From a virus (taxonomy: Duplodnaviria; Heunggongvirae; Uroviricota; Caudoviricetes): 9,856 bases of DNA. The stretch lies in the IMG/VR virus record IMGVR_UViG_2695420526_000009; one strand, written 5' to 3'. The translations under genes and the position numbers were made by a program. The notes below the pieces were generated by a model. That model ran no database searches and was not told where the DNA came from. It saw nothing but the letters and a program-made list of their open reading frames with translations. Position 1 is the stretch's first letter, and every line of letters begins with the position of its first letter. Shown here in pieces: positions 4,239-9,694 of this stretch.

Positions 4239-4248
4239 NNNNNNNNNN
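4239..4248. other. Assembly/scaffold gap (10 N)
   Basis: Ten consecutive n characters in the sequence. Confidence 1.
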
Positions 4249-4431
4249 GTAGCCAGAGTTGTATACATCCCCACTGGCAACCAGCTCTCTGGCGAGAACG
4301 CTTATTAAATATCTTGTCGCCCCGGTTTTAGCTTCCAGTTGTCGTAACGTCTCGCGCCCACTCTGGCGTACGAGTTCAACAACCTGCCCCTTAATTTTTT
4401 CCCGCTCTTCCTGTGTAAATACTTTTGCCAT
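4249..4431 (-). CDS. Hypothetical phage protein, N-terminal 61 codons (partial; 3' end lost at gap)
   Basis: ATG at 4431 (MAKVFTQEEREKIKGQVVELVRQSGRETLRQLEAKTGATRYLISVLARELVASGDVYNSGY), GGGGG SD-like stretch upstream, 15 nt after the stop of the preceding gene. The track ORF 4198-4446 reads through the N-run and IS and is an artefact. Confidence 0.6.
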
Positions 4432-5946: not shown

Positions 5947-7011
5947 TCACCCCCTGAATCCCGGCGGAATTTCGGTATCCGGTTCAGAAATATGATTCAC
6001 ACAACGCTGGTTGTTCGTGCCGCTTACCGGGAGCAACCAGGGGTTTTCAAAATTCCGGTCCGGCCCAAAAAACGTCGTCGCTCGCTGAACAAATTCCGTT
6101 CCCGCTTTCCCGGTCGCCGCCAGGTATCTCGCGTAACGCCTCACACCATCCAGCATGGTCTCTGGTGGCACCCCCTCGCGCAATCTGGCCTTCCAGGCAC
6201 TGAATGCGGATTTCTTCGGGTTTGCCCCGGCACGCAACGGGTATTCCCGCCAGACCTGTTCGAACACATCCGGATAATCCACTCGTCCCACAGGCTGCCC
6301 GGTGTTTTCCGGGGCTACCCGATCGGCTTCCCGCTGAATGGCGGAATCGGCTTCAGGCTGCTGCAGTTGGAGTGATTGCTCCGGCCTTGCGGTCATCACC
6401 TGCTGCACAGCGCCCGAATCGGCTTTCAGCGCATACGCTGAATCGGCTTCCGGTGTCGAGCCTGCTGGCTGACCAGGATTGACGGTCTGAACATCCCCTG
6501 CCTGGTTCGTGGCGTTTTTTACGCCATGGACCATAGTGTTTTGATCTTCTTTATCTGTATCTTTATCTGTATCTGTCGTGACTCGTCGTGACATGTGCGT
6601 GACATTTCGTGACGCGCCGTGACAATCGCCATTTTGTTCCCGCTTTCTTTCCCTCTCTCGCTGCGCCCTCTTGCGCTCTGCAGGAGATTTTGCGGTTTGC
6701 GAAATATTGCCGTTGTCCTCTTTAAGCACCTGGCGTTTTTCCCATCCAGTGATTAAATCACCATCAAGTACCCGCCCCTGCATCGTCTGCAAAATTGAAT
6801 CAATTACCTCTTCTGTCACGTCGAGCGCACTTGCCAAATCTTCTGTCGTGACATCAATGTGACCTCGCGTGACATTTCGTGACGCGCTCACCAGGAGGTG
6901 GATATACACTGCCATCACTGTTGCAATTGGCTGCCCTGACACCCTGGCAATTGTTCGCCACTTAGGGTCATTTGGCATGTCATGCCATAATCTGAGCCAG
7001 GCGTTAGCCAT
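5947..7011 (-). CDS. Phage replication initiator, O-like (Rac YdaU-like), 354 aa
   Basis: Position between the YdaT-like gene and the DnaC-like loader. Iteron arrays lie inside the coding sequence, as with lambda O/ori. ATG at 7011 with GAGGTG SD-like sequence upstream; the track start at 7017 is GTG. The central region is low-complexity (TDTDKDTDKED) and encoded by the repeats. Confidence 0.75.
   Translation of the reverse strand: MANAWLRLWHDMPNDPKWRTIARVSGQPIATVMAVYIHLLVSASRNVTRGHIDVTTEDLASALDVTEEVIDSILQTMQGRVLDGDLITGWEKRQVLKEDNGNISQTAKSPAERKRAQRERERKREQNGDCHGASRNVTHMSRRVTTDTDKDTDKEDQNTMVHGVKNATNQAGDVQTVNPGQPAGSTPEADSAYALKADSGAVQQVMTARPEQSLQLQQPEADSAIQREADRVAPENTGQPVGRVDYPDVFEQVWREYPLRAGANPKKSAFSAWKARLREGVPPETMLDGVRRYARYLAATGKAGTEFVQRATTFFGPDRNFENPWLLPVSGTNNQRCVNHISEPDTEIPPGFRG
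6549..6623. repeat. Origin-like region: tandem 12-bp AT-rich repeat (CTTTATCTGTAT x2) followed by five CGTGAC iterons at ~10-bp spacing
   Basis: CTTTATCTGTAT at 6549-6560 and 6561-6572; CGTGAC at 6577, 6587, 6598, 6608 and 6618 (one helical turn apart), all within the O-like gene. Confidence 0.6.
6846..6887. repeat. Second iteron cluster (four (T/C)GTGAC copies), sharing an exact 21-bp block with the first
   Basis: CGTGAC/TGTGAC at 6847, 6858, 6868 and 6878; GCGTGACATTTCGTGACGCGC occurs at both 6597-6617 and 6867-6887. Confidence 0.5.
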
Positions 7012-7082: not shown

Positions 7083-7508
7083 TCAATGTACTGCCACAGC
7101 ATTTCCTGCCGGGCCACCACGGTTCATCTGATTGAAACCGGCGATTGCCACTGCGACAAAATCATCAGCGTCTCTCACCAGTCGTTCATGCGTCTCCACC
7201 AGTTCCCGAAAATAAGCTGAACTGTGGCTGCGCATTCGAGCCACCAGCGGAGGTGGCATTGCCCTTTCGATCGCAGGTAACAACGCCTGAATTTTTTCAA
7301 CAGCGTCAGGGGTGTCTTTATCCAGCCAACGGAAAATCTTTTGGGTGTTGAGATAAAGCGTGTTGTGCTTGCTGTCGTTATGCAGAACCGGAAACGTCAT
7401 TCCCAGTTCGAAATAAACCCTGGTTATTTCAGCTGCCGGAACTTTTTCACCGTCCGGATGCGCCCAGGCTTTCATCGCCATGCGGATGTGTTCATGCTTG
7501 ATTTTCAT
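7083..7508 (-). CDS. YdaT-like protein (CII-position regulator of Rac-type prophages), 141 aa
   Basis: Immediately downstream of the Cro-like gene with ATGA overlap (7505-7508) and upstream of the O-like gene, the position and size of Rac YdaT. Assignment is by synteny and size, not a search. Confidence 0.65.
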   Translation of the reverse strand: MKIKHEHIRMAMKAWAHPDGEKVPAAEITRVYFELGMTFPVLHNDSKHNTLYLNTQKIFRWLDKDTPDAVEKIQALLPAIERAMPPPLVARMRSHSSAYFRELVETHERLVRDADDFVAVAIAGFNQMNRGGPAGNAVAVH

Positions 7509-7768
7509 GAATCAACCCCCGCCGATGGTTGTGTGTTAGCCTGAAACTCAGCAGGCAAGCCGTCAGTTGGGTTGGGGTAGGTTTTACTGTCAATCTCATG
7601 TGGGGTCACCACCCATCCCGTTGCTTCACACCAACGTAATATTTTTTCTCCTGTAAGTTTTGCACGCCCCGTTATAACGTGGCTGACCATCCCTTGGGAT
7701 GCGCCAACAATCTCAGCAAATGAACTCTGGGTTATATGAAAATGATGCAAATATTCTCCAAGATTCAT
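7505..7768 (-). CDS. Cro-like HTH protein (XRE family; YdaS-like), 87 aa
   Basis: HTH-like segment QSSFAEIVGASQGMVSHVITGRAKLTGEKILRW; divergently placed against the repressor gene. ATG 7768 chosen (MNLGEY...); the track's longer start at 7795 is a TTG. Confidence 0.7.
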   Translation of the reverse strand: MNLGEYLHHFHITQSSFAEIVGASQGMVSHVITGRAKLTGEKILRWCEATGWVVTPHEIDSKTYPNPTDGLPAEFQANTQPSAGVDS

Positions 7769-7803
7769 AATCCGCCCTATGTGATGTGTTACCAATGCAT
7801 AAT

Positions 7804-7845
7804 TAATAGCACTGTTATTTTTAAAAGTAAATAGTGATACTATTT
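7804..7845. promoter_or_regulatory. Divergent switch region with two operator-like palindromes
   Basis: Perfect palindrome AAATAGT-GAT-ACTATTT at 7829-7845 and imperfect TAATAGC-ACT-GTTATTT at 7804-7820, in the 111-bp AT-rich spacer between the divergent repressor and Cro-like starts. Confidence 0.5.
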
Positions 7846-7879
7846 CAAAGTGATTAGCAATCTTATTAGAATTGGATGT

Positions 7880-8380
7880 ATGAAAAGAAAATCATTGTCA
7901 GACACCGACCTCAACGCCGCCAGAAGACTGAAAGAAATCTGGATGGCAAAGAAATCTCAGTTGGGATTGACTCAGGAACGTGCGGCGGAAATTATGGGGT
8001 TTTCAACACAAGGGGCGGTAAGTCACTACCTAAATGGTCAAACCCCACTAAACCTTGAGGCTGTTCTAAAGTTTGCTGGCTTACTGAAAGTTCCCCCTGA
8101 GTCAATCAGGCCAGACATGGTAGATTTGCTGCAAATTGCAAGGATGTATTGTCGAGAACCACAGCAAGATAACATAGTCGCATTACCAGCAGACACAGAA
8201 CAAACAGAGGATGAACTACCGTTTGCCGTAGAGCCGATGGAACGAGATTTAATCCATACGTTCAGAGCTTTTCCGAAAGAAGATCAAGAACACATGCTTC
8301 AGGAGATGAAAGATAAAAAAGAATCAATGGATCGTACGGTTGCGCGGTGGTTAGCTGCACAAAAAGGCCGTCGCGCCTAA
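7880..8380 (+). CDS. Prophage repressor, XRE-family HTH (RacR-like), 166 aa
   Basis: HTH LGLTQERAAEIMGFSTQGAVSHYLNGQTPL near the N-terminus; no S24 peptidase (LexA-like) domain visible, consistent with RacR-type rather than cI-type repressors. ATG 7880 (MKRKSLSD...) preferred over the track's GTG at 7850. Confidence 0.8.
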   Translation: MKRKSLSDTDLNAARRLKEIWMAKKSQLGLTQERAAEIMGFSTQGAVSHYLNGQTPLNLEAVLKFAGLLKVPPESIRPDMVDLLQIARMYCREPQQDNIVALPADTEQTEDELPFAVEPMERDLIHTFRAFPKEDQEHMLQEMKDKKESMDRTVARWLAAQKGRRA

Positions 8381-8399: not shown

Positions 8400-8594
8400 A
8401 TGAGTACAGTCCTTTCCCCAATGGTTTCAGAATTTGAGACAGTTGAGCAAGAAAATAGTTACAACGAATGGCTGCGGGCCAAAGTAGCAGCAAGCCTCGC
8501 GGATCCCCGCCCGGCGATTCCGCATGATGAGGTAATGGCGGAAATGGAACAAATTATTGCCCAAATTGCTGCTGCAACTCACAGAGGTGAATAA
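8400..8594 (+). CDS. Putative type II antitoxin (partner of the ParE/RelE-family toxin), 64 aa
   Basis: Small acidic ORF with SD GAGGAG 9 nt upstream; its TAA stop overlaps the toxin ATG (TAATG at 8592-8596). Antitoxin family (ParD/Phd-like) not determinable by eye. Confidence 0.6.
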   Translation: MSTVLSPMVSEFETVEQENSYNEWLRAKVAASLADPRPAIPHDEVMAEMEQIIAQIAAATHRGE

Positions 8595-8884
8595 TGTTAC
8601 CCGTTTTATGGCTACCATCTGCTCGTGATGATTTGCGCCAGATCGTAGCCTACATAGCTAAAGAAAATCCCGCGGCAGCACGCAGAATGAAAATTCGAAT
8701 TGAAACATCCGTTTTGCCGCTCACAGAGCATCCTTACCTGTATCCTCCAAGCGAGCGAGTTCTTGGTCTTCGTGAAATTGTAACTCATCCTAACTACATC
8801 ATCCTTTACCGAGTAACAGCATCAAGCATAGAAGTAGTAAATATTGTGCATTCTCGAAGACAGTATCCAGGCAAAAACAGTTAA
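8594..8884 (+). CDS. ParE/RelE-superfamily toxin, 96 aa
   Basis: Size, basic C-terminus and family-typical pattern (N-terminal W...ARDDLRQIVAYIA; C-terminal LREIV...YIILYRV...IEVVNIVHSRR) plus the overlapping upstream small gene. Confidence 0.75.
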   Translation: MLPVLWLPSARDDLRQIVAYIAKENPAAARRMKIRIETSVLPLTEHPYLYPPSERVLGLREIVTHPNYIILYRVTASSIEVVNIVHSRRQYPGKNS

Positions 8885-8898
8885 TTATTCCCGCCGAC

Positions 8899-8925
8899 AG
8901 AACCACCTTAGGGTGGTTTTTTCTT
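8899..8925 (+). terminator. Rho-independent terminator after the toxin gene
   Basis: Stem AACCACC (8901-8907) / GGTGGTT (8912-8918) with loop TTAG, followed by a T-run (TTTTTTCTT). Confidence 0.6.
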
Positions 8926-8939
8926 GCCCCAACAAAAAA

Positions 8940-8986
8940 CAATAGCGATGCTATTTACATCAAAAAAAAATAATGATGCTATTGTT
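8940..8986. promoter_or_regulatory. Second operator-like cluster (OL-like) with candidate rightward promoter
   Basis: Palindrome AATAGC-GAT-GCTATT at 8941-8955 and half-site copy AATAAT-GAT-GCTATT at 8969-8983, same consensus as the 7804-7845 sites. A TTTACA -35-like hexamer lies at 8954-8959; no convincing -10 was found. Confidence 0.45.
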
Positions 8987-9164
8987 TCAGGCGTCAACCC
9001 ACCCCGCCCCACAGAATGCAGGGCAATACTTCGAGTTACCAGACAGTGGTCAGGGGTTAAGTAGCCAGCCCGAGGCGTAAGAACATGACGGCAGGGTTCA
9101 ATCTTTAACTATGCAGCAGGTTTTTTGTTCCGCCACCCCGGCGTTAAGGGGAAATGAGGTCAGC

Positions 9165-9317
9165 ATGGATACTATCGATCTTGGCAACAACGAATCTCTG
9201 GTGTGCGGCGTGTTCCCTAACCAGGATGGAACGTTTACCGCCATGACGTATACCAAAAGCAAAACGTTTAAAACCGAATCTGGCGCGCGTTGCTGGTTAG
9301 CCAGAAACACTGACTGA
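9165..9317 (+). CDS. Small phage protein, 50 aa (YdaF-like by position)
   Basis: ATG 9165 with GAGG SD 5 nt upstream (MDTIDLGNNESLVCGVFPNQDGTFTAMTYTKSKTFKTESGARCWLARNTD). The track's longer start at 9111 lacks an SD. Confidence 0.55.
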   Translation: MDTIDLGNNESLVCGVFPNQDGTFTAMTYTKSKTFKTESGARCWLARNTD

Positions 9318-9328
9318 TGAGGCTGACG

Positions 9329-9694
9329 ATGGAATTTAAAGATTTACCGTCTGATGTACAGAAAACAGCAGCTCATACATTGCATTCTGTGCTGCGAGAA
9401 ATCGGGAAAGATATTGCAAGCGAGCCAGCAAAAGATCTGGCCCGGAAAATCAAGACCGCTTTCGTTGAGCTTTATAATGTTGGCACTGACTCTGAAACTG
9501 TCGAGACCAAGACCGTAAGTTCACCAATATTCTCACTTGAGCCAAGCGTATTATCAGGTGAAATATGCACCGAGATTTCCAGCGAACTGCTTCCGGTAAT
9601 ACGAGAAGCAATTCGCCGTCGCGGTTTGGATGGAAGTTATGATCATGACGTTCTGCAAGTTCTCAGGACAATGGTGACTTCACTGGGGATTTGA
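9329..9694 (+). CDS. Hypothetical acidic phage protein, 121 aa
   Basis: ATG 9329 with GAGG SD 6 nt upstream (MEFKDLPSDVQ...); the alternative ATG at 9317 overlaps the previous stop (TGATG). No recognisable motif. Confidence 0.6.
   Translation: MEFKDLPSDVQKTAAHTLHSVLREIGKDIASEPAKDLARKIKTAFVELYNVGTDSETVETKTVSSPIFSLEPSVLSGEICTEISSELLPVIREAIRRRGLDGSYDHDVLQVLRTMVTSLGI

Follow-up and report, generated by a model that had tools for sequence, protein, structure and literature searches.

Operators predicted to form an OL/PL region beside the parE gene of a lambda-like Escherichia coli prophage

Downstream of the toxin gene of a lambdoid E. coli prophage, a short dyad recurs that also occupies the divergent switch region on the far side of the repressor gene, which raises the question of whether one repressor could control two divergent early promoters from these two places, as had been suggested in a first-pass annotation by comparison with lambda. 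The window, that is, the whole 9856-bp stretch of DNA that was analysed, is the immunity region of this prophage (Table 1). Its rightward order is CI-like repressor, PaaA2, ParE2, terminator, motif pair and ydfA, and its leftward genes are those for a Cro-like protein and YdaT, together with an O-like gene and a DnaC-like replication gene. The motif pair therefore lies upstream of the rightward genes at 9165 (ydfA) and 9329 (an ORF of unknown function, 9329-9694), in the order that had been proposed. We conclude that 8941-8983 is very probably the OL/PL region of an E. coli lambda-like prophage, in which the operators are interwoven with the early promoter PL.

The layout itself is already established for lambda, Qin and CP-933P, and our understanding of lambdoid switches is unchanged; the new part is the immunity specificity. 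What we present is a sequence-level prediction of an undescribed E. coli prophage immunity specificity, consisting of the operator AATAGY-N3-RCTATT, its repressor and three controlled promoters. The operator sequence found no match in the literature searched.

Table 1. Positions of observed and predicted features in the 9856-bp window
Feature	Position	Strand	Remark
YdaT (CII-equivalent)	7083-7508	leftward	PDB 8bt1, E = 3e-70
Cro-like HTH protein, 87 aa, in YdaS position	7505-7770	-	
OR1, predicted operator	7805-7819		overlaps predicted PR -10 (TATTAA, 7808-7803, minus strand)
OR2, predicted operator	7830-7844		overlaps predicted PR -35 (TTTACT, 7831-7826, minus strand); abuts PRM -35 (TTCAAA, 7844-7849)
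Weak candidate OR3, ATTAGCAATCTTATT	7853-7867		3 mismatches; inside PRM spacer and -10
CI-like repressor, 166 aa	7880-8380	+	
PaaA2-like antitoxin	8400-8594	+	PDB 3zbe, E = 1.4e-23
ParE2-like toxin	8594-8884	+	PDB 5cw7, E = 6.7e-37
Intrinsic terminator of repressor-antitoxin-toxin operon	8899-8925	+	9-bp stem followed by T run
OL2, predicted promoter-distal operator	8941-8955		perfect palindrome, 23.1 bits; last bases overlap -35 hexamer
Predicted PL -35 hexamer TTTACA	8954-8959	+	sequence prediction
A9 homopolymer in PL spacer, between the two operators	8962-8970		longest homopolymer in window
OL1, predicted promoter-proximal operator	8969-8983		19.4 bits; one arm mismatch; overlaps extended -10 element
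Predicted PL extended -10 element TG-c-TATTGT	8977-8985	+	sequence prediction; conserved in relatives
Untranslated leader between PL and ydfA, 169 nt	8996-9164	+	conserved; common to heteroimmune prophages
ydfA (DUF1391), first gene of predicted PL operon	9165-9317	+	E = 1.3e-28

Four copies of one dyad

Downstream of parE, AATAGCGATGCTATT (8941-8955) reads exactly as the perfect 6-3-6 palindrome AATAGC-GAT-GCTATT that the first-pass annotation had reported, and the -35-like hexamer TTTACA noted beside it is present at 8954-8959. The neighbouring sequence AATAATGATGCTATT (8969-8983; AATAAT-GAT-GCTATT) is a further copy of the motif, as had been noticed, but the description of this copy as a half-site does not stand, since it is a complete 15-bp site with a single arm mismatch (G5 to A). 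Within the switch region lie AATAGCACTGTTATT at 7805-7819 and AATAGTGATACTATT at 7830-7844, and all four sequences fit the 15-bp dyad AATAGY-N3-RCTATT, so that the consensus thought to be shared between the two loci is borne out. We scanned the whole window with the degenerate pattern AATAGYNNNRCTATT, allowing at most one mismatch, and recovered only four matches, at 7805, 7830, 8941 and 8969, whereas 300 first-order Markov simulations yielded 0.06 on average and 1 at most. With a position weight matrix (PWM) applied to the whole window, these sites score 19-23 bits, whereas the best score per simulated window has a 95th percentile of 12.8 bits and a highest value of 17.2 bits, a test that is partly circular because the matrix was built from the same four sites and their homologues.

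Confinement of the motif to two loci, as the first-pass reading had anticipated, holds in the window and, for the exact motif, in 50 kb of a 98%-identical prophage (L055), where the exact motif is restricted to the OR and OL positions and the single further site with one mismatch lies isolated in a tail gene. The start-to-start distance between operators is 28 bp at OL in the window and 25 bp at OR. A sequence at 7853-7867, 23 bp from OR2, is at best a weak candidate for a third OR site: its 10.8 bits are the fifth-best PWM score in the window but fall within the null range. Neither the pattern scan nor the PWM found a third OL site near 8941-8983.

Between the two loci, the PaaA2/ParE2 pair lies directly downstream of the repressor gene and is co-transcribed with it. 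The hairpin beyond parE at the end of this operon was missed by the terminator scan and revealed by direct folding (-15.1 kcal/mol, z = -3.35), and it is kept in relatives.

Repressor type and operator type among relatives

The comparison covered 51 IMG/VR loci that a search with the repressor had retrieved, together with several loci from E. coli genomes. Among these, 45 relatives have the DNA-binding domain found in the window, comprising 10 loci whose repressors are ~99-100% identical and 35 loci at ~78% identity (the 78% group). The motif is present at both loci, in four fixed places, in every one of the 45: the OR sites lie 75 and 50 bp upstream of the repressor ATG, and OL2 and OL1 lie 52-60 bp and 77-88 bp past the parE stop, respectively. 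It is absent at both loci from L003, a relative of the CP-933P type, and from L048-L054, all of which have other DNA-binding domains but still encode the ParE toxin and the C-terminal module of the repressor, several of them also retaining YdaT and the leader. Operator sequence thus tracks repressor specificity across heteroimmune relatives, with the operators at OR and OL both being swapped together with the repressor DNA-binding domain. In a set of 30 distinct sites, no variation occurs at positions 1-4 and 12-15; positions 5-6 and 10-11 show a strong bias, and the centre is variable. The HTH region of the repressor (residues ~28-59) is the same in both groups except for M39L, while the whole protein is only 78% identical. 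One of the heteroimmune relatives (L048, 2821-3625) has tandem PaaR-like repressor genes, encoding 123 aa and 157 aa, upstream of paaA/parE.

The repressor itself is a chimera. Its N-terminal HTH domain is a homologue of the lambda CI N-terminal domain (E = 3e-9): both have a basic arm at the N-terminus, and acidic residues line up with E34 and D38. This domain is followed by a C-terminal module of ~45-60 aa common to PaaR2 and DicA. The last 44 aa are 52% identical to PaaR2 of CP-933P, and the DicA model NCBIfam NF007257 scores 32.4 bits against a cut-off of 101, with the C-terminal part of the model alone matching. We rejected the repressor as a whole-length homologue of either PaaR2 or DicA, since only C-terminal portions match. 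In relatives, this C-terminal module occurs with three or more unrelated DNA-binding domains, which means that the PaaR2/DicA-type module pairs with interchangeable DNA-binding domains, here a lambda-CI-like one. Pfam gives only HTH_3 and HTH_31 and no S24 peptidase domain in the repressor and, with no S24/LexA-type C-terminal domain, RecA-driven self-cleavage is not expected. None of the deposited phages carries this repressor, the best match being lambda cI at 31%.

The Cro-like protein is 85% identical in the 78% group and gave no alignment with CP-933P YdaS. No recombinants were seen among the relatives in which the Cro type is separated from the repressor type and, because the two types never separate, this comparison cannot assign the motif to either protein or to both.

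The window is 98% identical to a region in two complete genomes and ~81-82% identical to ~70 others; a close copy of the region is present in 72 of 5426 complete E. coli genomes, two of which have the exact subtype. When we searched for further copies of this OL subtype, a pattern scan of viral contigs gave the same 9 contigs again, and neither metagenome contigs nor a protein scan of genome contigs yielded any. The prediction should be useful for the annotation and study of paaR-paaA-parE addiction modules.

Predicted promoters and the A run between the left operators

The predicted promoters PR and PL are built alike: at both, the distal operator leads into TTTAC(T/A) and the right arm of the proximal operator gives TGcTATT. 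PR has the extended -10 element TG-c-TATTAA with a 17-bp spacer, and the TTTACA hexamer of PL, which corresponds to TTTACT of PR, is invariant in all relatives of the same repressor type whose OL region was printed. The predicted PL -10 lies ~175 bp upstream of the ydfA start at 9165. A consensus promoter scan of the window did not call PL; it found 3 sites in total, compared with 3.1 expected from shuffled sequence.

We propose that the HTH domain of the adjacent CI-like repressor reads the two 15-bp dyads at OL and that, by analogy, the Cro-like protein may read the same sites. Because OL2 overlaps the -35 hexamer and OL1 the extended -10 element, repressor bound to both would keep RNA polymerase off PL; when unrepressed, PL would transcribe rightward through the conserved leader, ydfA and dicB-type early genes. 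The same repressor on the two OR sites would block PR, and hence the cro-like and ydaT genes, and at OR2, whose centre lies at about -43 relative to the repressor ATG, it would probably activate its own promoter PRM. Lambda CI activates its own promoter from about -43. We infer binding and repression from these arrangements, as we would any cooperativity or OL-OR loop.

The putative PRM (TTCAAA, 17 bp, TAGAAT; 7844-7882, found by the promoter scan) ends 7 nt upstream of the repressor ATG, and the gene start lacks a Shine-Dalgarno sequence, so the repressor mRNA is predicted to be, and probably is, leaderless. Leaderless mRNA has been shown for lambda cI and for paaR2 (PMC8630535). On the leftward side, an exact match to the published YdaT operator, TTGATT-N6-AATCAA (PMC9986795), runs from the end of the Cro-like gene into the start of ydaT (7498-7515), which implies a putative PRE-like site, as in CP-933P.

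The spacing of PL in the window is unusual. Owing to the A9 run, its -35/-10 spacer is 20 bp, outside the usual 16-18 bp, and its operators are 28 bp apart. A6 alleles, the two complete genomes and every member of the 78% group have a 17-bp spacer, and the operator spacing of the A6 alleles and the 78% group is 25 bp, matching that at OR. Such spacing may mean a weakened promoter in the window. Among near-identical relatives the run is A5, A6, A8 or A9; no other indel separates the window from L059, L060 and L066 (0-2 substitutions over 5.6 kb), and the run differs by 3 bases from the window in two further contigs (0-4 substitutions). As the run is the longest homopolymer in the window, length-dependent slippage, real or technical, is the simplest reading of this variation. 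The count of nine could also be an assembly error, because the window is a draft scaffold with an N run at 4239-4248. This scaffold gap comprises 10 N, and the matching IMG/VR contigs begin exactly at 4249. The A run might have a role in tuning PL. We consider it rather doubtful, though worth stating, that a slippage-prone A tract shifts the promoter spacer (16-20 bp) and the phasing of the operators (24-28 bp) so as to provide promoter-spacer phase variation inside a phage operator; if this were true, otherwise identical prophages would differ heritably and reversibly in the expression and repression of the toxic ydfA-dicB early operon.

The same spacing bears on an alternative to a working OL/PL region, in which the operators are genuine but A9 and the 20-bp spacer cripple PL in this prophage, leaving the sites as a partner of OR (for looping or PRM control) or as a decaying remnant. 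Beyond the departures of both spacer and operator distance from the values in relatives and at OR, the visibly defective state of the relative L055, with its IS insertions and frameshifted integrase, would suit such decay. The operator arms are nonetheless intact, the A9 count may itself be a product of draft-scaffold assembly, and a sigma-70 promoter with a TGn extended -10 can function even when its -35 is poorly placed, so we regard a crippled PL as unlikely, though deserving of attention. A leftward promoter over OL1, producing RNA antisense to parE, can be drawn on the minus strand from TTGACG (8997-8992), a 16-bp spacer and CATTAT (8975-8970), which together matched 9 of 12 consensus positions in the promoter scan. 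That scan yielded no more sites than shuffled sequence, however, and the leftward -10 is lost in the 78% group (ACTATT), in which the rightward TTTACA and TATTGT are conserved; moreover, the homologous promoters PL933P and dicBp read toward ydfA and the shared leader. The minus-strand match over 8970-8997 is probably due to chance, and we find a functional leftward promoter highly improbable.

Whether the motif belongs to the repressor at all can be asked in two further ways. The Cro-like protein alone might read it, the CI-like repressor using another sequence, and the constant co-inheritance of the two types in relatives would suit either protein. Repressor and Cro share operators in lambda, CP-933P (PMC8630535) and Qin, however, no second repeated motif is apparent by inspection of the two regions, and conservation of the repressor HTH coincides exactly with that of the operator arms, making exclusive use by the Cro-like protein very unlikely. 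That the resemblance to the switch-region sites is due to chance, or to a functionless duplication, draws what plausibility it has from arms that are short and A+T-rich; against this, four sites stand where 0.06 were expected, they form two pairs with operator-like spacing, their arms, unlike the variable centre and flanks, are conserved at both loci over ~20% DNA divergence, and heteroimmune relatives lack the motif. We judge this possibility to be negligible.

Comparison with lambda, CP-933P and Qin

The reading of 8941-8983 as OL/PL places the prophage within a known family of arrangements. As in lambda, one dyad operator recurs at OR and ~1.1 kb away, past the repressor operon and its terminator, and OR2 lies near -43 of a predicted PRM whose transcript is probably leaderless. 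If the predicted -35 and -10 of PL are correct, the sites would also overlap both elements of an early promoter reading away from the repressor gene, as at lambda OL/PL. Unlike in lambda, the operator is 15 bp with the sequence AATAGY-N3-RCTATT, the best consensus matches are the promoter-distal sites, the repressor has no S24/LexA-type C-terminal domain, and a toxin-antitoxin pair replaces rexAB, with no N gene or nutL in the window. The number of sites also differs: OL has two in the window and three in lambda, Qin and CP-933P, and OR has two clear sites and the weak candidate at 7853, where lambda operators have three.

CP-933P of E. coli O157:H7 (paaR2-paaA2-parE2 / ydaS-ydaT) has the same gene order, homologous PaaA2, ParE2 and YdaT proteins, an exact YdaT operator at the ydaS/ydaT junction (PMC9986795), a PL between parE and the common leader, and homology over the C-terminal 44 aa of the repressor. 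The DNA-binding domain of the window repressor is unrelated to that of CP-933P, the Cro-like protein is not similar to YdaS, and the CP-933P operators are GTTTAGTAA-type repeats without the AATAGY motif. In CP-933P, PL933P occupies the same position beside parE2 and is repressed ~100-fold by PaaR2 and by YdaS, the footprints of the repressor and the Cro-like protein overlap, and both proteins repress this promoter (PMC8630535). The plasmid described for that system has the order PL933P-parE2-paaA2-paaR2, and the PL933P operators resemble those of PR/PRM (PMC8630535).

In Qin of E. coli K-12, the counterpart of PL is dicBp, a promoter upstream of ydfA that DicA represses 22-fold, and copies of the DicA operator lie at both dicA-dicC and dicBp (PMC10448788); we read TGTTAG-type operator repeats at the corresponding places in the K-12 sequence. 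The window resembles Qin in having a predicted promoter directly upstream of ydfA, a neighbouring short repressor without RecA-type cleavage, operator copies both in the divergent switch and by the ydfA promoter, and a repressor C-terminal region that is DicA-like. It differs in that no toxin-antitoxin pair separates the repressor from the promoter in Qin, which uses a TGTTAG-type operator, and in that the window repressor falls outside the DicA family NF007257. Taken with the gene map and the co-occurrence of motif and repressor, the CP-933P and Qin experiments support, by analogy, the earlier suggestion that a single repressor may act at two divergent early promoters in the manner of lambda.

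The leader that separates PL from ydfA also follows heteroimmune PL regions (CP-933P, phage Tritos and others), where its conservation is 88-95%, and a 75%-identical copy is present in a phage deposited as an Actinobacillus phage, while K-12 Qin keeps only the last ~40 nt. The junction at which the leader starts, CAACCCACCCCGCCCC, is shared by the window, L002, L003, L048 and L053. We rejected the leader as a structured RNA of the put-like or nut-like kind: its folding energy is no better than that of shuffles (z = +1.0), and RNAalifold on 13 variants, including the 75%-identical copy, gave a covariation term of 0.03 and one compensatory pair. An Rfam scan of the whole window returned two chance-level matches only, none near the motif pair or the leader. 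Elsewhere in the window, CGTGAC direct repeats spaced ~10 bp apart form two clusters (6572-6623 and 6842-6883) inside the O-like replication gene; these clusters resemble origin iterons and show indels between relatives.
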